Origin: Candidatus Multivorans sp.
GTDB taxonomy: Bacteria > Acidobacteriota > Thermoanaerobaculia > Multivoradales > Multivoraceae
Assembly: GCA_965262355.1 (NCBI GenBank)
Contig: OZ253534.1
Coordinates: forward strand, 3,343,468 to 3,407,467
Direction: 5' to 3'
DNA: 64,000 nt
This document shows, one piece after another, positions 23,099 to 41,516 of this stretch (positions are counted from its first letter, which is position 1; each line of letters starts with the position of its first letter). Under the pieces are notes generated by a model that saw only the letters and a program-made list of their open reading frames with translations, was not told the DNA's origin and made no database searches. Position numbers and translations under genes: made by a program.

Positions 23099-24322
23099 AT
23101 GACTACTCCCACGCGCGGCCCGCGACGGCCCAGCCGCCGCGCCTTACTCGGCCTGGCTGGCGCCGCCGCCGCGAGTTCGCTCCACCCGGCCGCCCGGGCG
23201 CAGACATCAGGTGAGATCCGGGATCTCGGCGAGACGCCCACCGAGTACGGGCAGCCGTCGCCGTTTGCCGGCGCCAAGCGCTGGAGCCGCGCCCCCGACG
23301 CGACGGCGTCGTCCTCGAACACGCCGCTCGCGGACACCGAGGGCATCGTCACGCCGTCCGGATTGCACTTCGAGCGCCATCACACCGGCGTACCGGGGAT
23401 CGACCCGGACACCCACCGCCTGACCATCCACGGCCTGGTCGACCGGCCGCTGGTGTTCGGGGTGGAAGATCTGGTCCGCATGCCGTCGGTGTCCCGGTTC
23501 CACTTCATCGAGTGCTCGGGGAACAGTGCGCGCGAGTGGTCGCCGGCCGGCGCCGCGAGCGTGCAGCTCAGCCACGGCCTCGCGAGCTGCAGCGAGTGGA
23601 CCGGCGTGCTGCTGGCGGATCTGTTGGCCGAGGCCGGCGTCAAGCCCGAGGCAAGCTGGGTCGTGGCCGAAGGCGCCGACGCGGGCCTGATGAGCCGCAG
23701 CGTGCCGCTCGAGAGGGCGCTCGACGACGTGATCATCGCCTACGGCCAGAACGGTGAGCCGGTGCGGCCCGAGCAGGGATATCCGCTGCGGCTACTGGCG
23801 CCGGGCTGCGAGGGCAGCGTCAACGTCAAGTGGCTGCGCCGGCTCGAGGTGGCGCACATGCCTTCGATGGCCCGTGACGAGACCTCCAAGTACACGGACC
23901 TCCTGCCCGACGGCAAGGCGCGCCAGTTCACCCTGGTCATGGACGCCAAGTCCGTGATCACGCGGCCCTCGGGCGAGCAGAAGCTGAACGGGCCTGGTTT
24001 CCACGAGATCCGCGGTCTGGCCTGGTCGGGCCGCGGCGCGATCAGCCGTGTCGAGGTGTCGACGGACGACGGCCGCTCGTGGAGCGACGCCGAGATCGAC
24101 GGCCCGCGCCACGCCAAGGCCTTCACCCGCTTCCGGTCGCCCTGGCGCTGGGACGGCGGCCGCCACGTCCTGATGTCCCGGGCCACCGATGACACCGGCT
24201 ACGTGCAGCCGACCCTGGCCGCGCTGCTCGAGGCGAGGGGCCGGTCGACGATCTACCACAACAACCGGATCAAGGCCTGGGAGGTCAAGGAGTCGGGGGA
24301 GGTGACGAATGTCGGGGCCTAG
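23099..24322 (+). CDS. soxC: Molybdopterin sulfite/sulfane dehydrogenase, SoxC-like
   Basis: Tat signal SRRALL; TPSGLHFERHH, FIECSGN, RPEQGYPLRL, VKWLRR, GLAWSGRG. Confidence 0.9.
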   Translation: MTTPTRGPRRPSRRALLGLAGAAAASSLHPAARAQTSGEIRDLGETPTEYGQPSPFAGAKRWSRAPDATASSSNTPLADTEGIVTPSGLHFERHHTGVPGIDPDTHRLTIHGLVDRPLVFGVEDLVRMPSVSRFHFIECSGNSAREWSPAGAASVQLSHGLASCSEWTGVLLADLLAEAGVKPEASWVVAEGADAGLMSRSVPLERALDDVIIAYGQNGEPVRPEQGYPLRLLAPGCEGSVNVKWLRRLEVAHMPSMARDETSKYTDLLPDGKARQFTLVMDAKSVITRPSGEQKLNGPGFHEIRGLAWSGRGAISRVEVSTDDGRSWSDAEIDGPRHAKAFTRFRSPWRWDGGRHVLMSRATDDTGYVQPTLAALLEARGRSTIYHNNRIKAWEVKESGEVTNVGA

Positions 24323-24944
24323 CGGACTGCACGGCAGAACGACCTGCCGCTCGGTTCCTGGGAACGCGGGCGTCTCGCCCGCATCCGGCGCGAAGCGCCG
24401 GCCCGTAGGCGCCAGTGCGATCGTCCTGTTCGCCCTGCTCGGCGCCACGGGCATGGCTGTTGCCGCCGAGGAGTCGGAGCGCACCGGTCTCGGCCACGAA
24501 GCCACCGCAGCGGAACTCCAGGCGGCCGGCTTCACCGTCTTTCCCGACGGCAAGGGCTTGCCGGAAGGCCAGGGAACCGCGCGCGAGGGTAGGGCCGTCT
24601 ACCAGCAATTCTGCGCCGCCTGCCATGGGCGAAACGCCGGCGGAGAGGACGCTGCGGCGCTGGTCGGCGGCCGCGGCAGCCTGACCTCGGAGCGGCCTCG
24701 GCGGACGGTTGAGAGCTACTGGCCCTACGCCACGACCGTCTGGGACTACATCCGCCGCTCCATGCCCTACGAGGCGCCCGGCTCACTCACAGACGACGAG
24801 ATCTACGCCGTCGTCGCCCACCTGCTGCACCTCGGCGGGATCGTCGGCGAGGACGAAGTGCTCGACCGCGAGAGCCTGCCGCGGGTCGAGATGCCGAACC
24901 GCGACGGGTTCGTACCGGACGACCGGCCCGACACGGGCCAGTAG
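24309..24944 (+). CDS. Monoheme cytochrome c, SoxD-like partner
   Basis: PDGKGLPEG, CAACHG, YWPYATTVWDYIRRSMP, MPNRDGF. Overlaps the soxC end. Confidence 0.88.
   Translation: MSGPSGLHGRTTCRSVPGNAGVSPASGAKRRPVGASAIVLFALLGATGMAVAAEESERTGLGHEATAAELQAAGFTVFPDGKGLPEGQGTAREGRAVYQQFCAACHGRNAGGEDAAALVGGRGSLTSERPRRTVESYWPYATTVWDYIRRSMPYEAPGSLTDDEIYAVVAHLLHLGGIVGEDEVLDRESLPRVEMPNRDGFVPDDRPDTGQ
24357..24391 (+). repeat. REP-like palindrome within the predicted cytochrome N-terminus
   Basis: CCTGGGAACGCGGGCGTCTCGCCCGCATCCGGCGC encodes PGNAGVSPASGA. Confidence 0.9.
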
Positions 24945-25000
24945 TCCGACTGTTGGTGCGCCGGCGCACCCAGGGGACGACCGTTGCCGATCTTGACGCT

Positions 25001-25936
25001 CTACTGCAGTTGCAGTAAATCCTGCTGCCGGGCAGGCGACCGCTCGATCCGCGGATAGTCGGCACCGACCGGACACGCGAGTTGACAGCTCTGGCAGCCG
25101 GTGTAGGCGCCCTGCCGCTGGACGGTGAGGTTGTAGAAGATCTGCTGCGTCACCGGGCTCCTGGCGATCTCGACTGCTTCGGCGGCGGACTTCGAATCGA
25201 ACAGGTCCTCGAGATGCTCCACCATGCGATCGGGGCCGAAGGGCTGGCAAGCCCGCGCGCAGGCGTCTTCGTCGAGACCGCGCACGTCGGCGAGCGGCGC
25301 GCCGGGGGGCGCCGACCTCGGAATCGCCCCAACGGGGCAGACCTCGGCGCAGCGGCCGCAGTCCTCGAGTCCGGGGCAGAGTTCCTCGGTTAGTGGCTGC
25401 CCGCACTCAACAGCGGCATCGGTCAGGACCCCGGCCAGGAACACCCGCGGGCCGTACTCCGGGGTCAGGATCATCTCGTTGAGGCCAAGCGTTCCCAGGC
25501 CGCTGGCGACCGCCGCCTGCCTCAGGAGCAGGGAACCCTGGCCGCCCGGACCGGCGTAGGCCATGGGCTGACGTCTGAGGTCCGGGATGGTCGCCGAGAG
25601 CACGCAGGCGATCGCGTCCCGCTGCTCCAGCCAGTAGGCGAGTTCGCCCGCGGCCTCCTCGAGATGGCGCGCCACGCGGCCGTTGGCATACTGGCGGAAG
25701 GCGGCGTCGGGCGAGCAGGCGACGCCGGTCGGGTAGCGCTTGGCGAGCACGATCAGGCGCGAGAGGTAGGTCGAGAGCTGCGACGGCTTGTCGTAGTCCG
25801 GCGCCTGCCCCTCCAGCTCCTGCCACGAGCAGAAACCGATCAGGTCGAGGCCGAGGGTCTTCGCCTTCGCTTCGATTGCCTCGGTGTTCAGCCTCGGGCC
25901 TGCGCCGTTGCCGTTTCTGCTCACCGGGTCGGTCAT
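25001..25936 (-). CDS. QueG/reductive dehalogenase-like cobalamin- and [4Fe-4S]-binding protein (paralog 3)
   Basis: AAVASGLGTLGLNEMILTPEYGPRVFLAGVLTD; CPGLEDCGRCAEVCP and CQSCQLACP. ATG 25936 with ATGA overlap. Confidence 0.82.
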   Translation of the reverse strand: MTDPVSRNGNGAGPRLNTEAIEAKAKTLGLDLIGFCSWQELEGQAPDYDKPSQLSTYLSRLIVLAKRYPTGVACSPDAAFRQYANGRVARHLEEAAGELAYWLEQRDAIACVLSATIPDLRRQPMAYAGPGGQGSLLLRQAAVASGLGTLGLNEMILTPEYGPRVFLAGVLTDAAVECGQPLTEELCPGLEDCGRCAEVCPVGAIPRSAPPGAPLADVRGLDEDACARACQPFGPDRMVEHLEDLFDSKSAAEAVEIARSPVTQQIFYNLTVQRQGAYTGCQSCQLACPVGADYPRIERSPARQQDLLQLQ

Positions 25937-26925
25937 CTGGCCCCTATGCGCACAAGATGATCGAAGTCGCGGTCCCGGATGTACTCCCGGTCCCGCTCGC
26001 TGGGCGGGCCGCGAAAGACGAGTTCGTGCTCCTCCTCGCCGCGGATGTGCACCACGCTGCCGGGCGGCAGGTCCTGCCGCCGGTAGGGGATGCGCATGAC
26101 CTTGCGGATGTCCTTCGACCCCACCGGGCAGATGTACATGCACTCGAAGCAGGCGGCGAAGGCGCCGCGCTTACTGTTCGTGGCGAGGAAGAAGTCCCGC
26201 CAGTAGCGGTTGTCGAGCACCTGGGAGACGTCGAGATCGACTTCGGCGCCCAGCAGTTTGCGCAGCACGACGTACAGCGAGCGGATGCTGATGCGCATCG
26301 CCGCCTGCGAGCAGCCCCGCTGGTCGAGATCGCGGATGTCGTTGACGCTGCTCTCGTTCGACGCCTTGAGCGGAATCGCCTGCGGCGGACAGATCACGGC
26401 GCAGCGGCCGCAGCGAAGCCCGGGGCAGAGGTCGTGGCCGAGAGGTTGGTCGGGTTCGAGTTCGGCGTCGGTGATCAGCGCCCCCAGGTAGACGCGGGAT
26501 CCGTACTCCGGGGTCAGGAAGTTGAGGTTGAGCCCGACATGGCCGAGTCCGGCGAATTCGGCCGTCCACTTGAGATCGAGCAGGCCGGCGCCGGTCCACT
26601 TCAAGTCGAGGTCGGCGTACTCGCCCGAGACCGGCAGGGCGCAGTGGCCGCGCTCCTCGAGCCACTCCGCGATCTCATAGGTGGTCTCCTCGGCGGAGTC
26701 GAGTGAAAGGTGCGAGTTCGTCGACTGGGTCGCCACGTCCTGAAGCGCCATCGCGCCGGTCAGGAGGTGCTTGGTGACCACGACGATGCTCTTCATCCCC
26801 TCGCACAGGTAGTCCGGCACCTGCCCGCTCTGGGTTATGGCGGTGTAGTCCGCAACATCGGCGACGCCGACCGAATCGGCGCCCCGCTCGAGCGCGAAAC
26901 GGGCGAGTTGCTCCTTCAGGCTCAC
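25933..26925 (-). CDS. QueG/reductive dehalogenase-like protein (paralog 2)
   Basis: GADSVGVA, AEFAGLGHVGLNLNFLTPEYGSRVYLGALITD; CPGLRCGRCAVICP and CFECMYICP. GTG 26925 with GTGA overlap. Confidence 0.82.
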   Translation of the reverse strand: MSLKEQLARFALERGADSVGVADVADYTAITQSGQVPDYLCEGMKSIVVVTKHLLTGAMALQDVATQSTNSHLSLDSAEETTYEIAEWLEERGHCALPVSGEYADLDLKWTGAGLLDLKWTAEFAGLGHVGLNLNFLTPEYGSRVYLGALITDAELEPDQPLGHDLCPGLRCGRCAVICPPQAIPLKASNESSVNDIRDLDQRGCSQAAMRISIRSLYVVLRKLLGAEVDLDVSQVLDNRYWRDFFLATNSKRGAFAACFECMYICPVGSKDIRKVMRIPYRRQDLPPGSVVHIRGEEEHELVFRGPPSERDREYIRDRDFDHLVRIGAR

Positions 26926-27908
26926 CGGCGCTCCTGGTCCCAGGTCGTGCGGCGGCGAATCTGCGGCCCCAGGTTCTCGATCTCGACGAACCCGTCCGCG
27001 TGCCGCCGCGGCAGCCGGTCGGGCAGGTCGTGGCGGCGGTGCGTGGACCAACTCAAGCGCTCGTAGTCCCGGCCGACGGGGCACACCTGGACGCACTCGC
27101 TGCAGCCGGTGAGCGAGGCCTCCTTCATCATCGCCATCTCCGACCAGATCTCGCCGGACTTGCGGCCGCGCATCCGCTGCCACATCTCGTCGCCGGTGCG
27201 CGCCTCGAAGATCGAAGCGAGATGCTCGCCGAAGGCTTCGAAACCGAAGGGCTGGCAGCTCTGCGCGCAGGCTCGCTCGTCAAGACCGCGGATTGTGGTC
27301 AGTGTGGCGCCCTGGGGGGCTCGCCTGGGGATCGCGTCCGAAGGGCAGATCGCGGCGCAGCGACCGCATTCCTCGAGGCCGAGGCAGAGATCCTCCGGCA
27401 GTTCGGCGCCCGGTTCGATCTCCGCCGAGGTCAGGACGCCGGCGAAGAAGACCCGCGGACCGTACTCCGGCGTCAGCACCATCCGGTTGAGGCCGAGCGT
27501 GCCGAGCCCGGCTAGCACGGCGCCCTGGCGGAGCAGGGGCGAGCCTTGCCCGGCGGGGAGGAGGTCTTCGGGTTTCCTGCGGTCGAAGTCGAGCGACGCC
27601 GGTGACACGGGCAGGGCGAGAAGGCCCCGTTCCTCGAGGCGAAACGCGATCCGCTCGGCGGCGAACTCCAGGGCGCGCAGGGTGCGGCCGCCGGCGAGCT
27701 GCTTGCTCGGCAAGTGCTTCGCCCACAGCACGCCGCGCAGCGTGCGCTTGCCGAGCACGATGAGAGTGCGGGACTCCGCGCTCAGCGTGGAAGGTCGGTG
27801 CCGTTCATCGAGCCGCTCCTCGAGATCGGCCACCGACGCGAAGCCGACGAGGTCGATCGCAAGGTCCTTGGCCATGGCCCGGGCGGCGCCTTCCAGCGTC
27901 TCGGCCAT
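26922..27908 (-). CDS. QueG/reductive dehalogenase-like protein (paralog 1)
   Basis: AVLAGLGTLGLNRMVLTPEYGPRVFFAGVLT; CLGLEECGRCAAICP and CSECVQVCP. TGATG overlap. Confidence 0.82.
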   Translation of the reverse strand: MAETLEGAARAMAKDLAIDLVGFASVADLEERLDERHRPSTLSAESRTLIVLGKRTLRGVLWAKHLPSKQLAGGRTLRALEFAAERIAFRLEERGLLALPVSPASLDFDRRKPEDLLPAGQGSPLLRQGAVLAGLGTLGLNRMVLTPEYGPRVFFAGVLTSAEIEPGAELPEDLCLGLEECGRCAAICPSDAIPRRAPQGATLTTIRGLDERACAQSCQPFGFEAFGEHLASIFEARTGDEMWQRMRGRKSGEIWSEMAMMKEASLTGCSECVQVCPVGRDYERLSWSTHRRHDLPDRLPRRHADGFVEIENLGPQIRRRTTWDQERR

Positions 27909-29410
27909 CAGGGCAGGGGCATCTGCTGGCTTTCCACCTCGCGCGCCTGGTCGAACGCGGCGACCGGCTCATCGGTGCGCACCTGCTCAAGCCAGAACAC
28001 GCCGTCGAACTGGGCGCTGTTGCCGCGCGTGCCGACAAAGTCGACGTCGCCGTCGCCGTCCATGTCGCGGGCGACGAAGCTGTCGAACATGCCGCGCTTG
28101 CGCCGCGAGATGTCGTGCCGGGTCCACTCGCCGTCGAGGTCGCCCGGGTTCTCGAACCAGGCGAGCCGGCCGAGCGGCGTGTCGGGCTCGACTTCGCGAT
28201 CTTCCGCCCGCCCGCTGCGGCTGTAGGCGCCGGACATGGCGTCGAGGTCGCCGTCGCCGTCGATGTCGGTGAAGGCGAAGCCGACCAGACTGTCCGGGGT
28301 CAGCCGGCCGATCCGGCGCAGTTGCCAGGCATCTCCCTGGTCGGCCGGCTGCTCCAGCCAGACGAGGACGCCGCCGAACTCGACCGACGCGAGGTCCAGC
28401 CGGCCATCGCCGGAGAGATCGACGAAGGCCATGTTGAAGCCGTTGACGAGTGCGCCAGTCTGGGGGGCGTTCGGCGGCCGGACGGTGTCGGCGGTGGTCG
28501 TCGTGCCCTCGATGAGGATCGGGTGCTCCACGAGTTCGACGTCGCCGGCGCTCCGGTTCTCGAACCAGAAGATGCGGCCCTCGCCGGTCGATCCGCCCAC
28601 GATGTCGGTGTCGCCATCGCCGTCGAGATCGACGGTCTGCGAGTTGATCGGCCAGATCACCTGCGCGATCTCGTGCTCGGTCCACTCGCCGGAGAGCGGG
28701 TCGGCCGTGGTGTCGAACCAGGAGATCGGGTTCCTGGCGGTGCTTCGCCGATCCGGGTTCTGCGCCCCCTTGTTCGGTGCGACGACTTCCGGCCGACCGT
28801 CGCCGTCGAGGTCGCCGGTGAACACGCGGATGTACGAGCCCCGATCCTTCGTGACCGGCGGAATCACCCGCGGCCAGTCGCCGCTACGCAGGGCGGCGGC
28901 CGCCTCTTCCGTCTCGGCGCCGGGGTTCTCGAAGTAGATCAGGTGGGCCAGCTCGCAGGCGGCAACGACGTCCAGATCGCCGTCGCCGTCGAAGTCGGAG
29001 ATGGCGACATCCTCGGATCCGGCGGCCTCCGCCCCCTCGGCGAGGGTCGCCAGAACCCAGGTGTCGGGGTCGCCGGTGCCGAAGGCGAGCCGGACGTGAC
29101 CCGCCCCTTCGTTGCCGTACTCGGTATCCGCCTCGTGGACGGAGACGATGTCGAGGTGGCCGTCGCCGTCGAGATCGGCCATCTTGAGTCCGTCGCCGCC
29201 GCGGATCGGGACGCCAGAGGTCTCCACGTCGTCGATGATGTGTTCGCGCCAGGAGATCCACTGGCCGTCCGTGGACTGGGCGTGGGTTGGCGTGTCGGCG
29301 ACGAGGTTCGAGGCGGGGGCAGGATCGCTGCCTTCGCCGGTCTGACAGGCCGGCAGCGTGAGGGCGAGAGCGGCGATCAGGCACCCGGCAAGGGAGCGCA
29401 AACCGCTCAT
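27908..29410 (-). CDS. FG-GAP/VCBS repeat (Ca-binding beta-propeller) lipoprotein
   Basis: Lipobox LPAC; about seven DxDGDGxxD motifs. ATG 29410 with ATGA overlap. Confidence 0.88.
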   Translation of the reverse strand: MSGLRSLAGCLIAALALTLPACQTGEGSDPAPASNLVADTPTHAQSTDGQWISWREHIIDDVETSGVPIRGGDGLKMADLDGDGHLDIVSVHEADTEYGNEGAGHVRLAFGTGDPDTWVLATLAEGAEAAGSEDVAISDFDGDGDLDVVAACELAHLIYFENPGAETEEAAAALRSGDWPRVIPPVTKDRGSYIRVFTGDLDGDGRPEVVAPNKGAQNPDRRSTARNPISWFDTTADPLSGEWTEHEIAQVIWPINSQTVDLDGDGDTDIVGGSTGEGRIFWFENRSAGDVELVEHPILIEGTTTTADTVRPPNAPQTGALVNGFNMAFVDLSGDGRLDLASVEFGGVLVWLEQPADQGDAWQLRRIGRLTPDSLVGFAFTDIDGDGDLDAMSGAYSRSGRAEDREVEPDTPLGRLAWFENPGDLDGEWTRHDISRRKRGMFDSFVARDMDGDGDVDFVGTRGNSAQFDGVFWLEQVRTDEPVAAFDQAREVESQQMPLP

Positions 29411-31266
29411 GGCCGGTACCAGATCGGCGACGACCAGGCGCGTTCCTGGATCGTCGGCTGCAGGTCGGGCCGCGGTTCGACATCGGCCCGGATCGCGTCC
29501 CAGGTCGACCAGCGGCAAGTCGGGTTCTCGAGCACCCGCAGGTAGTAGACCGCCCGCTGGCCGGGGTCGAACCCCGGGTCCTCGAACACGGTCCGGAGTT
29601 CCGCGGCGCCCAGGTCGGCCGAGACGCTGCAGTCGGAGAGGTCGACGGTGGCTCCGTTGTCGGGGCAGCGCGGCGGGTCGCCCGACGGGGTGCCGCCGTC
29701 GGAGCAGGCGACGTCGATGACAGTCTCGTGCGCCGCGCCGCCGTCGACCCAGCCCTTGACGACCTGGAGCCGCTGCAAACCCGCGCTCTCCGGGTCGCCC
29801 GACGCCCAGAGCAAGAGCTTCGGTGTACGGTCGCCGTCCGCCAGCAGGTCGCCGCCCATCGCCACGCCCTGCTCGTAGGCCTTGGCGATCATCTCGGGAT
29901 CGTCGGCCAGGCCCGCGTCGAAGTCGTAGCCGCCGAAGAAGCGCACCTGGATCCTCGGACCCGTGGTGGCGAAGGTCTCCTTGCGACGGAAGGCGTCGTA
30001 GATCGAGTCCCGAGTGTTCTCCTCGGCCCAGGCGCCGGTCAGACCGGAGGCGCCCCAGTTGTGGAAGTAGGTCTGGGCGTAGGCCGGGGAACCGTCCTCG
30101 TTCGGTTCGTCGAGCGGCACGGAGCCACGGCGTTGCGGAGTGCCGTCCCGGTTGCCGACCTTGCTGTGGTAGTTGTCCTCGTCCGGGGTGCCGCCGGCGT
30201 TGTGGCTGTCGGTGGCGCCGACGAGGCCGAAGCGGAAGGGGTTGAAGCCCTGCGTCTCCTCGAGCACCAGCCCGTCGAGATAGGCGGTGCGCACGTAGCT
30301 CCCCTTGGGCTCGCTGTAAAGCGCGGTCGCGATGCGGTAGGGCATGATCTCGAAGTCCGCCCACTCGTCGTTCGGCGACAGCAGCGGATGGACCTCGGAC
30401 GTGCCCTTGACCTGGGTTACCTCGACCAGCGGCTCGTTGCGCATCCGGGTCTCGACGTACTCGGCGTCGAGCGGCTCGCCGTCGAACGTCGCGAGGCTGA
30501 ACATGTGGCCGTTGCTGCCGTTCGAGTTGTGGGGGATGGCGAGCGCTTCAACACCCTCAGCACGCAGGCCGTCGAGCCAGACCCACAGATCCTCGGGATT
30601 GTTTGAGTCCATCGCCGTGAAGGGGACGTCCGGAGCTTCGCTGCCGCGGAAGATCACGTTGCGGTGGAGGTTGCCCTGGTCGGCGGCGGTGGTCGTGTAC
30701 TCATAGCCGATGAAGGTGGTGAAGGCGCCGGGGTCGTTGTGCTGCTCGGCGGACTCGACGATGCGCTGCCAGGCGGAGCGATTCGTCTGGGCCGCGTCGA
30801 TCTCGTGAAACTCGCCGGAGCGGTAGGCTTGCAATCCGCGCTGGAAACCCTCGGCAGGGCCCAGCTCCCGCAGCTCCTTCGCGATCGGCAGTTGATAGAG
30901 CGGATCCTCGGGGTCGTCCATCGCCGGCAGAACGCCGAGCAGGATGCCGTGGTCGGTGACTGCCTGGAAGTCGAGGGGCCGCCGGAGCTGCATCGTGTGC
31001 CCGGCGGGGTGGAGGAGGGGCGCGCCGCGGGCGAAGCGGTAGGCGTCGTCGGGGCTGGCCCGGACCTCGAAGATGTAGGCGTCCATCGAGAAGCGGGTGT
31101 GGACGTGCAGATCGCCGAAGTAGGCGTTGCGCAGGGGATTGGGCTGTGGCGCACTCGCCGCGTCCGACCCGTCAGTCCCGGCGCCGGCGCCGTCGTCGGC
31201 TTCCCCGCAGCCGATCAGCAGCATCGGAACGACAAGCGCGAGCGCTGGAAGGCGTGTCCATCTCAT
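29407..31266 (-). CDS. DUF3604 family putative lipoprotein
   Basis: Lipobox LIGC; YFGDLHVHT, VTDH, LHRNVIF, PHNSN, TDSH, QERAWSSPIW. Confidence 0.9.
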   Translation of the reverse strand: MRWTRLPALALVVPMLLIGCGEADDGAGAGTDGSDAASAPQPNPLRNAYFGDLHVHTRFSMDAYIFEVRASPDDAYRFARGAPLLHPAGHTMQLRRPLDFQAVTDHGILLGVLPAMDDPEDPLYQLPIAKELRELGPAEGFQRGLQAYRSGEFHEIDAAQTNRSAWQRIVESAEQHNDPGAFTTFIGYEYTTTAADQGNLHRNVIFRGSEAPDVPFTAMDSNNPEDLWVWLDGLRAEGVEALAIPHNSNGSNGHMFSLATFDGEPLDAEYVETRMRNEPLVEVTQVKGTSEVHPLLSPNDEWADFEIMPYRIATALYSEPKGSYVRTAYLDGLVLEETQGFNPFRFGLVGATDSHNAGGTPDEDNYHSKVGNRDGTPQRRGSVPLDEPNEDGSPAYAQTYFHNWGASGLTGAWAEENTRDSIYDAFRRKETFATTGPRIQVRFFGGYDFDAGLADDPEMIAKAYEQGVAMGGDLLADGDRTPKLLLWASGDPESAGLQRLQVVKGWVDGGAAHETVIDVACSDGGTPSGDPPRCPDNGATVDLSDCSVSADLGAAELRTVFEDPGFDPGQRAVYYLRVLENPTCRWSTWDAIRADVEPRPDLQPTIQERAWSSPIWYRP

Positions 31267-31361
31267 GGCGGATTTCCTCGAACGTAGTTGGGAGGTAGGA
31301 TGCTGAGTGTAGCGTTTGCGAATCCGGCGCTTTGCGCCGGGTTCCAGGATCGGAACGAGAA

Positions 31362-32348
31362 GTGAGCGGAAACCGGAGCAACAAGGTGATCTGTCTCGTG
31401 CCCCCAGGTCCGCGCGATCAGATCGCCCGGTTCCCGGAGCACTGGGAGGCCTGCTTCGTCCATCGCAACGACGACCTGACCGCCGAACTGACGGAGGGCG
31501 CCCGCGCTCTGCTGACCACCCACCCGTACCTGGTGGGACGGACCGAGCTGGAACTCCTGAACGGCGTGGAACTCGTGCAGCAGGTCGGTGTCGGCATCGA
31601 CAACATCGACGTGGCAGCGGCCCGCGAACTCGGGGTCCCTGTCTGCAACGTGCCCCAGGCCAACGCCGTGTCGGTGGCCGAGTACGTGATCATGGCGTGC
31701 ATCTTCCTGTTGCGCCGGATGGAGGAGGCGACGGCGGCCCTGCGAAGGCTGGAGAACCCGTACCCGGCTCTGTTCGTCAAGGGAAGCCACGAGGTCCGAG
31801 GGAAGAGGCTCGGGCTGATCGGCTACGGGGCGATCGCGCACGAGGTGGCGAAGCGGGCCCGGGCCCTCGAGATGGAGCTTCTTTCCGCCTCGGCACCGGA
31901 ACGTGAGCGCGAGCGCAGGCTGGCGCCGAGCCCGGACGAGCGCCAGCTCGGTGTCGAACGCATGTCGTTCGAGCGCCTGCTACGGGAGGCCGACGTGGTC
32001 AGCCTCCACGTGCCGCTGACCGATTCCACGCGGGATCTGATCGGCGCCCGGGAATTGGGGCTGATGAAGCCGTCGGCGTTTCTCATCAACACGTCGCGGG
32101 GAGGTATCGTCAACGAAGAGGAACTCGCTGCGGCGCTCTCCTGTGGGCGGATCGCCGGAGCGGCCATCGACGTCTTCAGCGTGGAGCCGATCCGTTCGGA
32201 CAATCCCCTGCTTTCGGCCCCCAATGCCTTTCTTTCTCCCCACAGCGGCGGCAGCACGAACGAGTGCGTGATAGACGCGATCCGGGAGAGCATCGCCAAC
32301 GTCGACCGTGTCCTGCGCGGGGAGGAGCCGCATCATCGTGTCTGCTGA
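31362..32348 (+). CDS. D-isomer-specific 2-hydroxyacid dehydrogenase
   Basis: GVGIDNID, IGYGAIA, LHVPLT, INTSRG, DVFSVEP, PHSGG. Confidence 0.92.
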   Translation: MSGNRSNKVICLVPPGPRDQIARFPEHWEACFVHRNDDLTAELTEGARALLTTHPYLVGRTELELLNGVELVQQVGVGIDNIDVAAARELGVPVCNVPQANAVSVAEYVIMACIFLLRRMEEATAALRRLENPYPALFVKGSHEVRGKRLGLIGYGAIAHEVAKRARALEMELLSASAPERERERRLAPSPDERQLGVERMSFERLLREADVVSLHVPLTDSTRDLIGARELGLMKPSAFLINTSRGGIVNEEELAAALSCGRIAGAAIDVFSVEPIRSDNPLLSAPNAFLSPHSGGSTNECVIDAIRESIANVDRVLRGEEPHHRVC

Positions 32349-32679
32349 CGTCTCACCGGTGAGCCCGGTTGCAAGCAACGACGGCGCCTCGGGCCACGTC
32401 ATCGAGGCCAGGGAGGTGCCGCGGCCGAACGTCCAGCGCGGCTACATCGAGATCTTCGAGCAGCTCTGCAAGGGCTGCGATCTCTGTATCCCTGCCTGCC
32501 CTGTGCGCATCATCGAGCCGGGGCGGGGCGCCAACATGATGGGCTGGAGGCCGGTCGTGGTGGAGGCGGACGCGATGAAGTACTGCATCGGCTGCAATCT
32601 CTGCGCGATGGTCTGCCCCGACCAGGCGATCGACGTCTTCCGGTTCGAGCAGCCGATTCCCCACGAGGAGTTGCCATGA
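32338..32679 (+). CDS. 2x[4Fe-4S] ferredoxin (2-oxoacid oxidoreductase delta subunit)
   Basis: CKGCDLCIPACP and CIGCNLCAMVCP. Confidence 0.9.
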   Translation: MSADVSPVSPVASNDGASGHVIEAREVPRPNVQRGYIEIFEQLCKGCDLCIPACPVRIIEPGRGANMMGWRPVVVEADAMKYCIGCNLCAMVCPDQAIDVFRFEQPIPHEELP

Positions 32680-33935
32680 GCGAGAAGCCCTTCGAGCCGC
32701 CGATCGGCAAGCCGACGATGGGCGCTCACGCGATGGGGATCGGCGCCATGGTCGCCGGCCTCGACTACTTCGCCGGCTATCCGATCACCCCGCAGACCGA
32801 ACTGCTCGAGTACGTCGCGGAGGCCCTGCCCGAGCATGGCGGCGTCTTCCAGCAACTCGGCGACGAGATCTCGAGCGTCATGGCGGTGTTCGGCGCCGCC
32901 GCCTGCGGCAAGCGGGCGATGACCGCGTCGGTCGGCCCCGGGCTGACGCTCATGATCGACGGCCTGACCAACGCCGCCGGCGCCGAGACGCCGATGGTGC
33001 TGGGGGCGCTCACCCGCGCCCACGTCGGCGTCTCGGGCGGTCTCTATCCGGCGCAGTCGGACATCCGCATGCTCCGGGGGCTCGGCAACGGCGACTACCA
33101 GTTGCCGCTCTACGCGCCGTCGACGATCACCGAGACCGTCCAGCTCACCGCCGAGGCGTTCGACGTCGCCGATCTCTACAGCATCCCGGCGGTGGTCTGC
33201 ATCGACGGCAAGATGGCGAACATGATCGAGACGCTGCAGCCGTTCGAGGTGCCGGAGCGCGACCTGCCGGACAAGACCTGGGCGCTCGACCGTTCGCTGC
33301 GGGAGAAGCGCCGGGTGGTCGGCGCCGCCCGAACGCCCGAACTCGACACGATGGTCTGCTACGAGATCCAGAACAAGCTCGAGCGAATGCGCGCGGAGGA
33401 GACCCGCTGGGACACCTTCCGGTGCGACGACGCCGAGTTCGTCGTGGTCGCCTACGGCATCATGGCGAGGATCGCGAGAGAGGCGGTCAAGCGGGCGCGC
33501 GAGGAAGGGATCAAGGTCGGGCTCTTCCGGCCGATCACCCTCTTCCCGTTCCCGGAGGCGCCGCTCGGCGACCTCGCCGCCAGCGCCCGGGAGATGCTGA
33601 TGGTCGAGATCAACTTCGGCCAGGTCCTCACCGACGTGCGCCTGGCGGTCGCCGGCCGGTGCCCTGTCCAGTTCTTGGGACAGCCGGCCCTGGCGATCCC
33701 GGCCGGGGCCGTGCTCGAAGCCATCCGGCAGATGGCAGCCGGGCAGCCGGTCGAGCCGCGGGACTTCTTCGACATCCATCCCACCGCCTTCCACCTCGCC
33801 GACACCCATCCCCCGGCGAGAAGGCAGATGCTCGACCAACTCGCCGCCAAACGCGGGCGCGACAGCGCCCAGGGGATGCTCGACAACCTGCTTGGCATCC
33901 GCAAGAACTCGGTGATCCCGGAGATTGGAAAGTGA
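32676..33935 (+). CDS. 2-oxoacid:ferredoxin oxidoreductase alpha subunit (Vor/Kor-like)
   Basis: AGYPITP, GPGLTL, VVAYG, GLFRPITLFPFP, VEINFGQ. Confidence 0.9.
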   Translation: MSEKPFEPPIGKPTMGAHAMGIGAMVAGLDYFAGYPITPQTELLEYVAEALPEHGGVFQQLGDEISSVMAVFGAAACGKRAMTASVGPGLTLMIDGLTNAAGAETPMVLGALTRAHVGVSGGLYPAQSDIRMLRGLGNGDYQLPLYAPSTITETVQLTAEAFDVADLYSIPAVVCIDGKMANMIETLQPFEVPERDLPDKTWALDRSLREKRRVVGAARTPELDTMVCYEIQNKLERMRAEETRWDTFRCDDAEFVVVAYGIMARIAREAVKRAREEGIKVGLFRPITLFPFPEAPLGDLAASAREMLMVEINFGQVLTDVRLAVAGRCPVQFLGQPALAIPAGAVLEAIRQMAAGQPVEPRDFFDIHPTAFHLADTHPPARRQMLDQLAAKRGRDSAQGMLDNLLGIRKNSVIPEIGK

Positions 33936-34768
33936 CTGAACCAGCCGCACGGTCGACGAAGCGCTACACGCCGCCCGAGGGCGCTGCCGCGCGCAAGATC
34001 TCGCCCCAACTCGATGTCCATACCGGGCTGCCGTCGTCCTGGTGTCCGGGGTGCGGGCACGGGTCGGTCAGCCAGATCCTGTGCGATCTGGTGACCGAGC
34101 TCGATCTGGCCGAGAGGACGATCCTGGCCCTGGGCGTCGGCTGCGGCTCGGCGATCGCGGCGCAGATGGAGGTGAACACGGTGCTCTCGCCGCACGGCCG
34201 CGCCAGCGACACCGCCACCGGCGTCTCGCGCATGGTCCCCGACCGCGTCGTCGTCCAGTACTCCGGCGACGGCGACTCCTGCGGCATCGGGCTGGCGGGC
34301 CTGATGCACGCCTGCAACCGGCGCGAGAACTTCATCGTCGTCATCTACAACAACAACGCCTACGGCATGACCGGCGGCCAGATGGGCCCGACCACCACCA
34401 AGGACGTGCCGACGACCACCTTCCAGGGCGGCCGCGACGAGGAGGTCATGGGCTATCCCATGGACATCATCAAGACCCTGGCGCACTTTCCCGGCGTGGT
34501 CTATGCGGGGCGTTGCGCTCTGACCTCGGGTGTCCGCTACGGGGAGGCGAGCCGGATGATCCGGCGGGCCTTCGAAATTCACCTCGCCGGCATCAAGGGG
34601 ATGAAGGTCATCGACTGCCTCGGCAACTGCAACGTGAACTGGAAGGGCGGCGGCGTGACCTTCACGCCGGAGAGCTCGAACCAGTTCATCGAAGACAAGA
34701 TCATGAAGTACTTCGAGATGGGCGAGGCGACGGTGCCTGAGGGCTACCCGCCGATCCGCGTGCGATGA
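33932..34768 (+). CDS. 2-oxoacid:ferredoxin oxidoreductase beta subunit (TPP-binding)
   Basis: WCPGCGH, GVGC, HGRA, GDGD...NNNAYGMTGGQ. GTGA overlap. Confidence 0.92.
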   Translation: MTEPAARSTKRYTPPEGAAARKISPQLDVHTGLPSSWCPGCGHGSVSQILCDLVTELDLAERTILALGVGCGSAIAAQMEVNTVLSPHGRASDTATGVSRMVPDRVVVQYSGDGDSCGIGLAGLMHACNRRENFIVVIYNNNAYGMTGGQMGPTTTKDVPTTTFQGGRDEEVMGYPMDIIKTLAHFPGVVYAGRCALTSGVRYGEASRMIRRAFEIHLAGIKGMKVIDCLGNCNVNWKGGGVTFTPESSNQFIEDKIMKYFEMGEATVPEGYPPIRVR

Positions 34769-35355
34769 CGGCGCACGGATGGAACGCAGGAGGGGCCGTG
34801 GTCGAGCGCGTCGGCGGCGCCGGAACCGGCGGCGCCGGTCTGCTGACCTGTCTCAAGACGCTCGGCTACGCGGCCGCCGCCAAGGGCTGGCACATGGCCT
34901 ACACCTCCGACTACAACCCGGAGACCCGCGGCGGCCTGGTGGAGGGCACGGTCGTCCTGTCGAGCGACGAGCCGATCGACAACCCGGTGATCGAGTCGTA
35001 CACCGCGGTGCTGGCGTTCGATCACGCCGGCTACCTGTCCTACGGCCCGGGCGTCGAGCCCGGCGGGCTCATCCTGTGGGACAGTTCGAGGGTCAGGAAC
35101 CCGCCGGCACTGGAAGGCGTCCGCTCCTACGGCGTGCCGGTGTTCCAGTTGGCGCGCGACGGCGGCGCCCCGGGCCTGGCGAACATGGGCATGCTGGGCC
35201 TCTACAACCGGATCGCCGGTCACTTCACGATCGACGAATTGCTCGCCGGCATGGAGGACTACCTGCCGGTGTGGCGTCACAAGCTCCTGCCGGGCAACCG
35301 GGCGGTGCTCGAAGCGGTGTCGCGGATCGATCCGGAGGAGTACCGGGTTGCCTGA
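34765..35355 (+). CDS. 2-oxoacid:ferredoxin oxidoreductase gamma subunit
   Basis: GAGTGGAG, YNPETRGG, ANMGMLG; operon position. Confidence 0.85.
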   Translation: MTAHGWNAGGAVVERVGGAGTGGAGLLTCLKTLGYAAAAKGWHMAYTSDYNPETRGGLVEGTVVLSSDEPIDNPVIESYTAVLAFDHAGYLSYGPGVEPGGLILWDSSRVRNPPALEGVRSYGVPVFQLARDGGAPGLANMGMLGLYNRIAGHFTIDELLAGMEDYLPVWRHKLLPGNRAVLEAVSRIDPEEYRVA

Positions 35356-35364
35356 GGAGCTCTC

Positions 35365-36852
35365 ATGATCAGACGATCTCTCTTCGTGGCGGTGGCGTTG
35401 GGCGCCGTGCTTGGCTGCGGCCAGGATCCGGCCGGCGAAGCGGTGGACGGCGAGGCGCAGCGGCCGCCCAACGTCGTGTTCATCCTCGCCGACGATCTCG
35501 GCTACGGCGATCTCGGGCTCTACGGCAGCGACATCATCGAGACCCCGCACATCGACGCGCTCGCCGCCGCCGGCGTGCGCTTTACGGCCGGCTACGTGAC
35601 CGCCGCGGTCTGCAGCCCGTCCCGGGCCGGCCTGATGACCGGCCGCTACCCGCAGCGTCACGGCTACGAGTTCAACCCGTCGGGCCAGGACTACGGACTG
35701 AGCCTCGACGAGACGACGCTGGCCGAAGTGATGCGGGCCGCCGGCTACGCGACCGGCGCCGTGGGCAAGTGGCAGCTCGGCTGGGGCGACGGCAAACACC
35801 CGCTCGACCGCGGCTTCGACGAGTTCTTCGGCATGCAGAGCGGCTCGATCTACATCGAACCCTCCGCCGAGGGGGTGGAGAACTGGAGTCCGCAGCCGAT
35901 GCCCGAAGTGCGGCGGCGGCCGATCTTCCGCGGGCGTGAGCCCGTCGAGGAAAACGACTACCTGACGGACGCCTTGACCCGGGAGGCCCTCGACTTCATC
36001 GACCGGCAGCGCGACCGGCCGTTCTTCCTCTACCTGGCGCACTACACGCCCCACGTTCCTCTCCAGGCGACGGCGAAGTACCTCGACCGCTACCGCCACA
36101 TCGAGGACCAGAAGACCCGCATCTTCGCGGCGATGGTCGCGGCTCTCGACGACAGCGTCGGCGCGGTCACAGCCCGGCTGCGCGAACACGGCCTGGAGGA
36201 GGACACGCTGATCGTCTTTCTCTCCGACAACGGCTGCGCCCTCTACGTCGACGGTGCCTGCACCAACGGTCCGCTCCGCGGCGGCAAGCGCTGGTTCTTC
36301 GAGGGCGGCATCCGGGTGCCGTTCTTCGTGAGCTGGCCGGGCGGGCTGGAGCCGGGGCAGGTCTACCGGCCGGCGGTTTCCTCGCTCGATCTGCTGCCCA
36401 CGCTGGCGGCCGCCGCCGGCGCGCCGTTGCCGGAGAAGCCGCTCGACGGGGTCGATCTTCTGCCCTATCTCCGCGGCGAGCAGACGGGGGTGCCGCACGA
36501 GGCGCTGTTCTGGCGCGCGGGCCCGAACCGCGCCGTCCGCCGGGGCGACTGGAAGCTGTGGCAGGTCAACCGCGCCTCGGAGGAGCGGCTCGCGCAGATC
36601 ACGCGCACCGGCGATCTGCTCCGCGATTTCGAGGCGCCCCGCGATTCGCCCCTCGGCCGGGTCCTGCGGCTGCACGACCTGGGGAGCGATCTCGGCGAGC
36701 TGAACACCGTCGCCGATCAGGAGGCCGAAGTCCTCGAAGAACTCCAGCGCGCGCTCGACGCCTGGGAGAGCGAACTCGCCGAGCCGATGTGGTGGAGCAA
36801 TCGCGGCACCGCCGCCGTCGTCGACGGCGACGGAATCCAGCTCATCTTCTGA
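35365..36852 (+). CDS. Sulfatase (FGly-dependent, arylsulfatase-like), lipoprotein
   Basis: Lipobox VLGC; ILADDLGYGD, CSPSRAGLMTGRY, GKWQLG, SDNG, EGGIRVP. Confidence 0.93.
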   Translation: MIRRSLFVAVALGAVLGCGQDPAGEAVDGEAQRPPNVVFILADDLGYGDLGLYGSDIIETPHIDALAAAGVRFTAGYVTAAVCSPSRAGLMTGRYPQRHGYEFNPSGQDYGLSLDETTLAEVMRAAGYATGAVGKWQLGWGDGKHPLDRGFDEFFGMQSGSIYIEPSAEGVENWSPQPMPEVRRRPIFRGREPVEENDYLTDALTREALDFIDRQRDRPFFLYLAHYTPHVPLQATAKYLDRYRHIEDQKTRIFAAMVAALDDSVGAVTARLREHGLEEDTLIVFLSDNGCALYVDGACTNGPLRGGKRWFFEGGIRVPFFVSWPGGLEPGQVYRPAVSSLDLLPTLAAAAGAPLPEKPLDGVDLLPYLRGEQTGVPHEALFWRAGPNRAVRRGDWKLWQVNRASEERLAQITRTGDLLRDFEAPRDSPLGRVLRLHDLGSDLGELNTVADQEAEVLEELQRALDAWESELAEPMWWSNRGTAAVVDGDGIQLIF

Positions 36853-40018: not shown

Positions 40019-41516
40019 GCGAGCGCTGACTTCCAGACTCGGCGGCTGGCCTCTGGCGCTCGGCGCCCTGCTGGGGTCGCTCGCGCTCCTGGCCGGCTGC
40101 GCTCCCGCCGGTACGGACGCCGTCGACCCGGCGGCTTCCGGCGGGCCGCTCACGGTGGCCGAGACACCCTCTTCTGCACAAACCGCGGGCGGCGAGTTCA
40201 TCTCGTGGCGTGAGCACCGCATCGACGACGAGGAACTCTCCGGCGGCGTCCCGCTGCGCGGCGCCGACGGCCTGAAAATGGCCGACCTCGACGGCGATGG
40301 ACACCTGGACATCGTCTCCGTTCACGAGGACAGCGACCACGTCCGGCTCCACTTCGGGAGCGACGATCCCGACCGCTGGGCCAGCGTCACCCTGGCCGGG
40401 GGCAAGGAGGCGGCCGCGGCCGAGGACATCGCGATCGGCGACGTCAACAACGACGGTCTGCTCGACGTGCTGGTGGCGTGCGAGCTCGACCACCTGACCT
40501 ACTTCCAGAACCCGGGAACGGGAGTTCGGGACGGCCGTTGGCCGCGGCTGATCCCGTCGGTGACGGCGGGAAGGGGCTCCTGGATCCGGGTCTTTCTGGC
40601 GGATCTCGACCAGGACGGTCAGCTCGAGGCCATCGCGCCGAACAAGGGAGCGCAACAGCCGGAGGGCGAGCCGGTGCCAGACACCTTCCCCCTCGAGGAA
40701 GTGTCCCTGTTCAGGATCGACGGCGATCCCCTGGTCGATTCGAGCTGGACCGAGACCGTGCTGGCGACAGTCACCGTGCCGATGAACTCGAGGCCGGTCG
40801 ACCTGGACGGTGACGGCGATCTGGACATCCTCGCGGGCAGCCGCTCGGAAGCGAGGATCTTCTGGCTGGAGAACCTGCTCGAAGCCGGATCGGGAGAGCT
40901 GGCGTTCGAGGAGCATCCGATCGAGATCGTCGGCAGAACCGTGCCGTGGCAGCCGGGGCCGCGGCGCCTCACCGGCATGAACGTCGAGTTCACCGACCTG
41001 AACCACGACGGCCGGCTCGACTTGATCCTCCAGGAGACGCCGGTCCTCAACGTCTGGCTCGAGCAGCCGCCGGACCCGGTCATGGAACCGTGGACGATCC
41101 ATCCGATCGGAGACACGGCGCCCGACAATCCGACCGGTCTCGCGCTGTTCGACGACGACGGCGACCTCGATCTCTGGAGCGGCGGCTACAGCTCGCGGCC
41201 GCGCGACCGCGACGGCGAGGACAAGACCGCCGCCAGCGTCGCCGGCCGCCTGGGCTGGTTCGCCAATCCCGGCGATCCGACCGGCGAGTGGACCCGGCAC
41301 GACGTCTCCCGCCGCGTGCGCGGCATGTTCGACGAGTTCGTCGTCCTCGACATGGACCAGGACGGAGACAGCGATCTGGTCGCGACCCGCGGCAACAGCG
41401 GCCGCTACGACGGCGTCTTCTGGCTCGAACAGGTCCGCACCGCCGAACCCCAGCGCGCCTTCTTCCCGGCTCGCGAGTCCGAGAGCCGGCACCTGCCGCT
41501 GCCGTCTGGCGACTGA
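39969..41516 (+). CDS. FG-GAP/VCBS repeat lipoprotein, paralog of 27908-29410
   Basis: Lipobox LAGC; shared blocks ISWREHxIDD, DGLKMADLDGDGHLDIVSVHE and DGVFWLEQVRT. Confidence 0.87.
   Translation: MSIPRSTDGSSASGQPERALTSRLGGWPLALGALLGSLALLAGCAPAGTDAVDPAASGGPLTVAETPSSAQTAGGEFISWREHRIDDEELSGGVPLRGADGLKMADLDGDGHLDIVSVHEDSDHVRLHFGSDDPDRWASVTLAGGKEAAAAEDIAIGDVNNDGLLDVLVACELDHLTYFQNPGTGVRDGRWPRLIPSVTAGRGSWIRVFLADLDQDGQLEAIAPNKGAQQPEGEPVPDTFPLEEVSLFRIDGDPLVDSSWTETVLATVTVPMNSRPVDLDGDGDLDILAGSRSEARIFWLENLLEAGSGELAFEEHPIEIVGRTVPWQPGPRRLTGMNVEFTDLNHDGRLDLILQETPVLNVWLEQPPDPVMEPWTIHPIGDTAPDNPTGLALFDDDGDLDLWSGGYSSRPRDRDGEDKTAASVAGRLGWFANPGDPTGEWTRHDVSRRVRGMFDEFVVLDMDQDGDSDLVATRGNSGRYDGVFWLEQVRTAEPQRAFFPARESESRHLPLPSGD

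Follow-up and report, generated by a model that had tools for sequence, protein, structure and literature searches.

To our knowledge, only three activities have been established for the protein fold shared by QueG and RdhA, namely epoxyqueuosine reduction, respiratory dehalogenation and catabolic dehalogenation. Here we describe a triplet of genes, termed A1, B and A2, whose paralogous products are predicted to adopt this fold. The genes form the 3′ part of a five-gene operon of Candidatus Multivorans sp. (Acidobacteriota), in a 64,000-nucleotide stretch, hereafter the window, of contig OZ253534.1 (assembly GCA_965262355.1, positions 3,343,468 to 3,407,467 of the forward strand). We put the probability at roughly 55% that A1-B-A2 is an accessory, ferredoxin-fed heteromeric reductase from a branch of the QueG/RdhA superfamily, acting on an aryl- or acyl-coenzyme A (CoA)-type substrate. 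We found no literature on Candidatus Multivorans, and no description of the triplet family in the literature searched, whose coverage left subscription journals outside.

The closest described systems share parts of this design. QueG (PDB 5d6s and 5d08; TIGR00276) is likewise cytoplasmic and combines a corrinoid-type alpha/beta domain with a two-[4Fe-4S] domain and a conserved AG(L/I)GxxGKN...TPExG block. It is a monomer according to PMC4646009 and PMC5175355, whereas the triplet family consists of coupled paralogs that lack the C-terminal HEAT/tRNA domain, carry GGR or NSH in place of the QueG motif DYH, and have a first Cys spacing of x4/5 instead of x2. The catabolic dehalogenases of the NpRdhA/BhbA type (PDB 6zxu and 4ras) resemble the triplet in being cytoplasmic, with neither a twin-arginine (Tat) signal nor an RdhB partner, and gave the best structural match; however, they are chains of ~700 amino acids (aa), often with a fused reductase domain, to which our profiles matched with an E-value of only ~3e-3. 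A second, vestigial cobalamin-type domain within one chain, which PMC12219181 describes for NpRdhA-type enzymes, provides a precedent for multi-module assemblies of the QueG/RdhA fold, although in the triplet family the modules are separate, full-length and retain all Cys. The respiratory dehalogenase PceA (PDB 4uqu and 8q4h) has the same core fold, but differs by its Tat signal, its RdhB anchor and its quinol/respiratory coupling, none of which is present at the triplet locus. Finally, CblC/MMACHC shares the fold of the corrinoid-binding domain, but has no ferredoxin domain and is a trafficking and dealkylation enzyme. A cold-seep 'RdhA-like novel clade' was set aside as a different group, given the transmembrane helices and RdhB attributed to it in PMC12219181.

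The operon comprises five minus-strand genes (25001-31266; Table 1), the first two encoding a DUF3604 and an FG-GAP/VCBS-repeat lipoprotein and the other three A1, B and A2. The original prediction, made from the letters and the open reading frames (ORFs) alone, had described every junction as a start/stop overlap, and re-reading returned the same ATGA, TGATG, GTGA and ATGA at all four positions. A1 is closer to A2 (46% identical) than to B (34% identical). Common to the three paralogs (328, 330 and 311 aa) are an AGLGxxGLN...LTPEYGxRV block and a Cys layout in which C-x4/5-C-x2-C-x3-CP is followed by one Cys and then by C-x2-C-x3-CP, in agreement with the shared block and the two Cys clusters with an expanded first motif that had been predicted. 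None of the eight Cys varies in 22 relatives or in the B-type alignment; when 80 relatives are compared, this still holds for seven, and C214, the eighth, shows at least 90% conservation. Likewise, GQGSxLLRQ and CQPFG were confirmed as features of A1 and A2 that B does not have. The GTG start of B agrees with the start positions of its orthologues. As had also been predicted, the N-termini of A1, B and A2 contain no twin-arginine motif, judged by eye, and no small membrane-protein ORF that would correspond to RdhB was found within the operon.

Profile searches placed these proteins outside the described families. Pfam recognized only Fer4-type domains in the paralogs. Against TIGR00276 (QueG) they scored 39.6 (A1), 51.3 (B) and 42.7 bits (A2), over model positions ~52-198 only and with a cut-off of 200 bits, and against TIGR02486 (RdhA) 29.4-40.6 bits with a cut-off of 160 bits; the kinship to QueG and RdhA proposed earlier is real but distant, and lies outside canonical QueG. 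The AlphaFold2 model of A1, built from an 80-sequence alignment, reached a predicted local distance difference test (pLDDT) value of 93.4, and in a structure search (VIA) it matched NpRdhA (Z 17.2), QueG (17.1) and PceA (17.0 and 16.4) far better than CblC (10.7) or flavin nitroreductases (≤6.7). The model shows a corrinoid-type alpha/beta domain and, C-terminal to it, a ferredoxin domain, with the VIA alignments to the solved branches covering model residues 1-318; the superposition on QueG had a root-mean-square deviation of 3.1 over 207 residues, with model residues 3-285 aligned to QueG 1-250 of 370. Foldseek also returned QueG as the top matches of the A1 model (E 4e-8). In hhalign, the mostly A-type family alignment A3 matched nine QueG sequences of relatives with a probability of 99% (E 8e-18), and the B-type alignment matched QueG with a probability of 97.6%. 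In these alignments, which could be off by 1-2 residues, the QueG motif DYH stands opposite GGR in A-type and NSH in B-type proteins, and the VDTGP Asp loop stands opposite DxTPAGQGS in A-type proteins, with B having Gly at the Asp position. Of the 333 QueG columns, the alignments reach column 242 for the A type and column 287 for the B type, the proteins ending shortly after the second Cys motif. The 311-330 aa paralogs have no HEAT-like tRNA-binding domain, and no match to PF08331 was found. The separate, true queG that the original prediction had proposed to look for is present in the same genome (321.3 bits, 1.6 Mb from the triplet), and 25 of 26 relatives also have QueG, among them congeners that lack the triplet (for example, G381 and G296). 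Judging from these profiles and the model, A1, B and A2 have the class III B12 (QueG/RdhA) fold and are members of neither the QueG nor the RdhA family. Their relatives are labelled 'ferredoxin', 'hypothetical' or 'QueG' by their sources, the last being a wrong annotation.

We then asked how far the arrangement is conserved. A pattern scan with one genome per species, in which genes were assigned by tblastn, returned 28 loci. The full five-gene cassette was found in three of them (L005-L007, from Ca. Multivorans and an Acidobacteria metagenome-assembled genome, or MAG; 82-92% identity); L008 (Acidobacteriota) and L009 (Gemmatimonadales) carry A1-B-A2 with neither DUF3604 nor FG-GAP, and L010 (Rhodospirillales) has B followed by an A-type gene at the start of its contig. 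Another 13 loci hold tandem pairs; they come from Rokubacteria/Methylomirabilota, Binatia, Tectomicrobia, Entotheonella, Gaiellaceae, Micromonosporaceae and Pseudonocardia acaciae, whose strain DSM 45401 is a cultured carrier of the pair type; the remaining loci were cut by a contig end, fragmentary or unrelated. The genes of a pair overlap, usually by 4 nt. A metagenome scan with the B-type alignment gave 13 loci, of which the seven longer than 3.7 kb were analysed (L053 and L054 being the same in sequence) and those of ≤2.1 kb (L052, L055, L057, L060, L061 and L063) were left out of the neighbourhood counts. All five full loci carry A1-B-A2 in order, L062 has B-A2, and none has DUF3604 or FG-GAP. 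The order A1-B-A2 is thus kept in L006-L009 and five metagenome loci, which answers the synteny check suggested for the triplet, and every locus with enough flank holds two or three tandem copies. Judging from gene order, A1-B-A2 is a conserved unit.

In a tree of 47 rows, A1, A2 and B formed separate clades with 97-100% support, each holding the copies from the window, L008 and L009, and two further sister clades comprised the first and the second pair genes, respectively; the root is unsure, the QueG outgroup branch being very long. Of 1.84 billion representatives searched with HMMER, 5,591 were relatives at E≤1e-3, 1,206 at 1e-10 and 98 at 1e-30. Among the best 150 relatives, P0127 (670 aa) and P0131 (678 aa) join the first and second paralog of a pair head to tail, in operon order, and ~30 proteins of 725-813 aa (for example P0159 and P0162) have two or three QueG/RdhA-type modules per chain; one protein of the latter size class carries the source label 'QueG'. 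The B gene was found in 7 of 401 genomes of the phylum (2 of 227 genera), and in Gemmatimonadota the B type was limited to 1 of 401 genomes, the centre genome of that survey. The A1-B-A2 cassette is a rare, patchily distributed accessory module. Some B genes are interrupted: B is split into two overlapping frames in L005 (10615-11321; one Ca. Multivorans MAG) and in G432:C279:10618-11321, and has one in-frame TAG in G309 (C15:640033-641007). Such interruptions may reflect either errors of assembly or decay of the gene. The genome also encodes a fourth, very distant superfamily member outside the window (G000:C1:4001256-4002269, plus strand), whose gene stands alone upstream of a luciferase-like gene; it shares 26-28% identity with A1 and B and differs from them in the first Cys motif.

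Prediction of the three-chain complex, with B as the scored partner, gave an interface score (ipSAE) of 0.90 in three runs, with at least 90% of the contacts in agreement and a partner pLDDT of 81. Replacing B with unrelated proteins brought the score to 0.00 in both cases, and when A1 was replaced it was 0.45, with B still on A2. Of 157 solved complexes, 116 attained the mark used for ipSAE, as did 2 of 215 mismatched pairs; these counts serve only as a rough guide here. In the model, B contacts both A1 and A2; the equivalents of the QueG DYH region (A1 57-79, B 55-73) pack on residues 83-107 and 93-121 of the next chain, and segment 93-121 of A2 includes the equivalent of the QueG Asp loop. 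From these contacts we infer a possible head-to-tail ring, with putative active sites near the interfaces. Given the overlapping codons, the conserved order, the tandem copies, the natural fusions and the complex model, A1, B and A2 probably form a heteromer. The original prediction had proposed a cytoplasmic, possibly heteromeric enzyme, and the multimer check (0.90 versus 0.45 for the best control), together with the clades and fusions, speaks for it.

The two lipoprotein genes appear to have a different history. A 15-kb DNA comparison showed that G236 and G349 are collinear with the window. In G381, the end of the cytochrome c gene and the stop of the FG-GAP gene lie within ~26 bp of each other and exactly the three paralog genes are missing, with FG-GAP and DUF3604 kept at 86% identity; G196 is similar, but has 1.35 kb of other DNA in the triplet's place, and G186 keeps only pieces of FG-GAP. 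Neither DUF3604 nor FG-GAP stands beside the triplet in any of nine loci outside the genus, the linkage being limited to the genus and near relatives. The genome (5.4 Mb) has 14 full-length DUF3604 genes, and only the one in the operon (P0005) adjoins the triplet or an FG-GAP gene. Since congeners keep the pair without the triplet and only 1 of 14 DUF3604 copies adjoins it, DUF3604-FG-GAP is, by these comparisons, an independent module, with the triplet joined to, or lost from, its 3′ end.

In the genus, the triplet is accompanied by a second cluster, which encodes a four-subunit 2-oxoacid:ferredoxin oxidoreductase (OFOR). Of 42 genus genomes, 18 have the genes for both B and OFOR alpha and the other 24 have neither, and B lies ~6-8 kb from an OFOR gene in all 18 carriers. 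In G381 and G196, the OFOR genes are missing too, together with the D-2-hydroxyacid dehydrogenase gene, and DUF3604 directly faces the sulfatase gene. This dehydrogenase gene, divergent from DUF3604 across 65 bp in the window, would thus be the first gene of the module that co-occurs with the triplet. Congeners without the OFOR cluster have the sulfatase gene 65 bp from the promoter side of DUF3604, which suggests a seamless addition of both accessory modules to operon ends already in place. When 30 of the 42 genomes (13 carriers) were placed on a tree of a 5.1-kb rpoB region, carrier status changed at least seven times, compared with a mean of 10.0 changes for shuffled labels (seven or fewer in 4.5% of the shuffles), and on a QueG-locus tree of 16 genomes carriers and non-carriers were interspersed; both are single-marker trees. 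The co-occurrence is suggestive of a functional pairing. In Thauera aromatica, a 2-oxoglutarate:ferredoxin oxidoreductase is encoded with benzoyl-CoA reductase (BCR) and regenerates reduced ferredoxin. That arrangement may serve as a functional analogy, although the reductase there is an ATP-dependent class I BCR, whereas here the OFOR is VorB-like and the link comes from co-occurrence alone.

Neighbours of the triplet at the nine loci outside the genus (L008, L009, L010, L051, L053/L054, L056, L058, L059 and L062) hint at the substrate class. A PaaK-like CoA ligase gene lies 54-105 bp from the triplet in four of the nine (L008, L051, L058 and L062). In two (L051 and L010) the triplet is followed by a three-subunit molybdenum enzyme resembling 4-hydroxybenzoyl-CoA reductase, whose alpha subunit scored 822 (L051) and 711 bits (L010) against TIGR03194, below the cut-off of 995 and above the 548 and 527 bits for xanthine dehydrogenase. 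L008 also has a UbiX-type prenyltransferase and a hydratase whose best model was cyclohexa-1,5-dienecarbonyl-CoA hydratase (Dch; 238 bits, below the cut-off of 292.5; next model 143), and L059 has an IclR gene upstream and a 4HBT thioesterase gene downstream of the triplet (thioesterase, 1/9). Among the pair-type loci, L013 has a benzoate-CoA ligase family gene (497 bits, above the cut-off of 375), L024 a PaaK-like ligase, L026 an acyl-CoA synthetase, and L019 and L027 PaaX-type regulators; for the low-GC locus L012, neighbours lay outside the annotation set. The common theme, as read from these gene neighbourhoods, is the making and handling of aromatic acyl-CoA thioesters. In the genus of the window, a single step of the OFOR would yield both an acyl-CoA and reduced ferredoxin, so that this enzyme could take the place of the ligase and, in addition, provide low-potential electrons. 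L010 further encodes a URO-D-family (methyltransferase-like) protein near the triplet (5984-7231), and its genome, G440, carries a complete class I BCR and the ring-opening hydrolase Oah elsewhere, and is that of a bona fide anaerobic aromatic degrader.

In the reading that we favour, A1, B and A2 would assemble in the cytoplasm, probably head-to-tail and 1:1:1, each subunit contributing an N-terminal corrinoid-type alpha/beta domain and a two-[4Fe-4S] ferredoxin domain. Reduced ferredoxin, here probably from the neighbouring OFOR, would deliver electrons, which the clusters would relay to a corrinoid (or other) centre near a subunit interface. This centre would carry out a two-electron reductive elimination, that is, dehalogenation, deoxygenation or dehydroxylation, the most likely small-molecule substrate being an acyl-CoA thioester, aromatic or other, or the corresponding acid. 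In the genus, the triplet would have become attached to the 3′ end of a pre-existing DUF3604-FG-GAP operon, probably sharing its transcription and not its function. The core idea of the original prediction, a cytoplasmic enzyme of the QueG/RdhA fold that is heteromeric and undescribed, is thereby the best reading after the fold, profile, synteny and complex tests. Several points nevertheless weigh against it. The complex was run on our own alignments and with three chains, which departs from the conditions of the tool's calibration; PceA homodimerises through its corrinoid domain, and the complex score may owe something to this solved homodimer. The Tyr that stands above the corrin in QueG, PceA and NpRdhA has no counterpart in A or B in hhalign, a distant profile alignment, and corrinoid binding by any subunit is putative, class III B12 enzymes having no cobalamin sequence motif according to PMC4646009. 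No CoA-related neighbour was found in three of the nine outside loci (L009, L053/L054 and L056). In the window genome, the single PaaK-like ligase gene lies 1.66 Mb from the triplet (36% identity), and no close Dch, UbiX or thioesterase orthologue was found in it. Moreover, the OFOR genes and the triplet are only 3.4 kb apart and recombination of the whole locus could move both, so that their co-occurrence is not independent evidence.

Another possibility is that the scaffold was kept while B12 is no longer used, the subunits being Fe-S (possibly flavin) oxidoreductase or electron-transfer proteins whose N-terminal domain has another cofactor or none. We regard this as possible but on the whole unlikely. 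The Tyr/DYH features of the class III enzymes appear not to be conserved in the hhalign alignments; the same fold binds flavin mononucleotide (FMN) in nitroreductases (Z 5-6.7), a vestigial cobalamin-binding domain is known from NpRdhA-type enzymes (PMC12219181), and, with the genome 99.3% complete, searches found no CobS and only a 22-bit match for CobQ. Yet the model is far nearer to corrinoid enzymes than to flavoenzymes, the block most conserved among QueG, RdhA and the triplet family is retained, and the cell uses B12, since the genome encodes QueG and four proteins with the B12-binding domain PF02310. As a separate observation, this combination makes the organism resemble a B12 auxotroph that relies on uptake. 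We give hardly any credence to the triplet being extra QueG-type tRNA or nucleoside epoxide reductases that act on queuosine-like substrates: the label that some sources attach to relatives (here 'epoxyqueuosine reductase QueG') and the best PDB sequence match, which is QueG, would fit, but the profile scores fall far short of the cut-off, the HEAT-like domain is missing, DYH is replaced and a canonical queG is already present.

The triplet could also be a new dearomatising benzoyl-CoA (aryl-CoA) reductase replacing the class I and II enzymes, as the PaaK-like ligase and Dch-like hydratase that flank it in L008, the 4-hydroxybenzoyl-CoA-reductase-like enzymes beside it in L051 and L010, and the fact that BCR-B was not found in four of five carrier genomes might suggest. 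Oah exceeded its cut-off in only one of the five carriers, however, and that one (G440) has the class I BCR (821 bits); the Dch-like protein stays below its cut-off, the window genome is without a close Dch, and we know of no precedent for corrinoid-based arene reduction. With four of the five carriers having neither Oah nor a known reductase, and the fifth both, we judged a replacement BCR unlikely, and rate this explanation as very improbable. Alternatively, all five genes might be one system, in which a surface DUF3604 hydrolase and FG-GAP binder free or capture a compound that the triplet then reduces. All four junctions overlap, the order is kept in L005-L007, G236 and G349, and the distance of ~6-8 kb between B and the OFOR gene in all 18 carriers is consistent with the same arrangement. 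Against it stand the congeners G381 and G196 with DUF3604 and FG-GAP but no triplet, the nine outside loci that have neither gene, the 13 of 14 DUF3604 copies that are elsewhere, and the short form of the locus, which puts DUF3604 beside the sulfatase gene. The earlier proposal that surface DUF3604 and FG-GAP proteins supply the reductase is consequently not supported, the linkage being seen in only 3 of 28 loci, and we consider a five-gene system improbable.

Table 1 Features in and around the operon (positions and strands refer to the window; aa, amino acids)
Feature	Position	Strand	Remarks
Cytochrome c gene	24309-24944	+	Convergent; bounds the operon 3′ end
A2 (P0001, 311 aa)	25001..25936	-	Paralog of A1, 46% identical
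Junction B stop / A2 start	25936-25933	-	ATGA
B (P0002, 330 aa, GTG start)	25933..26925	-	Divergent paralog; invariant NSH, DxKW; all eight Cys
Junction A1 stop / B start	26925-26922	-	GTGA
A1 (P0003, 328 aa)	26922..27908	-	QueG/RdhA-type fold (predicted); 2x[4Fe-4S] Cys motifs; GQGS loop
Junction FG-GAP stop / A1 start	27910-27906	-	TGATG
FG-GAP/VCBS-repeat lipoprotein (P0004, 500 aa)	27908..29410	-	PF13517, 100.5 bits; lipobox-like N-terminus
Junction DUF3604 stop / FG-GAP start	29410-29407	-	ATGA
DUF3604 lipoprotein (P0005, 619 aa)	29407..31266	-	PF12228, 736.4 bits; GDLHVHT metal motif
D-2-hydroxyacid dehydrogenase family gene	31332..32348	+	NCBIfam models 188-203 bits, all below cut-offs
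OFOR, four subunits	32308..35355	+	Alpha VorB-like; beta and gamma also match
OFOR delta ferredoxin	32308-32679	+	
OFOR alpha	32676-33935	+	VorB-like, 330.7 bits, below cut-off of 399
OFOR beta	about 33899-34768	+	
OFOR gamma	34765-35355	+	
Sulfatase gene	35365-36852	+	Starts 10 bp past the OFOR gamma stop

Regarding the surroundings of the operon, a GAGGA resembling a ribosome-binding site precedes the DUF3604 ATG at 31266, and a 65-bp gap separates the 5′ end from the divergent 2-hydroxyacid dehydrogenase gene. A promoter and terminator scan of 24700-31500 gave no promoter-like site and a single terminator-like site, which lies on the wrong strand, whereas shuffled sequences gave more; at Rfam gathering thresholds only a tRNA was matched in the window, and a cobalamin riboswitch was not found. 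Directly downstream of, and convergent with, the operon are the genes for a SoxC-type sulfite dehydrogenase (561 bits, above cut-off) and its cytochrome c partner (23099-24944, plus strand). P0005 matches PF12228 above the gathering score over its full length (profile positions 2-591 of 591), and the N-termini of both P0004 and P0005 are lipoprotein-like signal sequences. DUF3604 is strongly expanded in this genome: another copy lies at 10221-12020 (plus strand) of the window and others at 12 further places in the genome, which also has ~8 further ORFs of roughly 860-950 aa with only short DUF3604-like stretches; the family was found in none of 14 control genomes, and the literature that we found gives no function for it. 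A second FG-GAP paralog (40155-41504, plus strand), 54% identical to P0004, has no DUF3604 neighbour.

These results also show that tight translational coupling is no proof of shared function, the operon here being a composite of two modules. A bolder version of the favoured reading, which we consider speculative and rather unlikely, is that the triplet is the founding heterotrimeric class III corrinoid/Fe-S enzyme, a three-module ring with active sites at the interfaces and a dedicated OFOR, which would perform an undescribed reductive removal of a halogen, a hydroxyl or an epoxide oxygen on aromatic CoA thioesters. If this were true, it would be a new enzyme class in peripheral aromatic catabolism, with the two-gene relatives, the fused two-module proteins and the multi-module chains of 725-813 aa as versions of one machine. 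That more B12/[4Fe-4S] families lie behind ferredoxin-like annotations was predicted in PMC4646009 by the authors of the QueG structure. The triplet family is a candidate for such a hidden family, with ~100 representative clusters at E≤1e-30, and its obligate tandem or fused organisation, together with the neighbouring aromatic-acid CoA ligase and 4-hydroxybenzoyl-CoA-reductase-like genes, offers a testable lead to a missing reaction of aromatic or organohalide metabolism.

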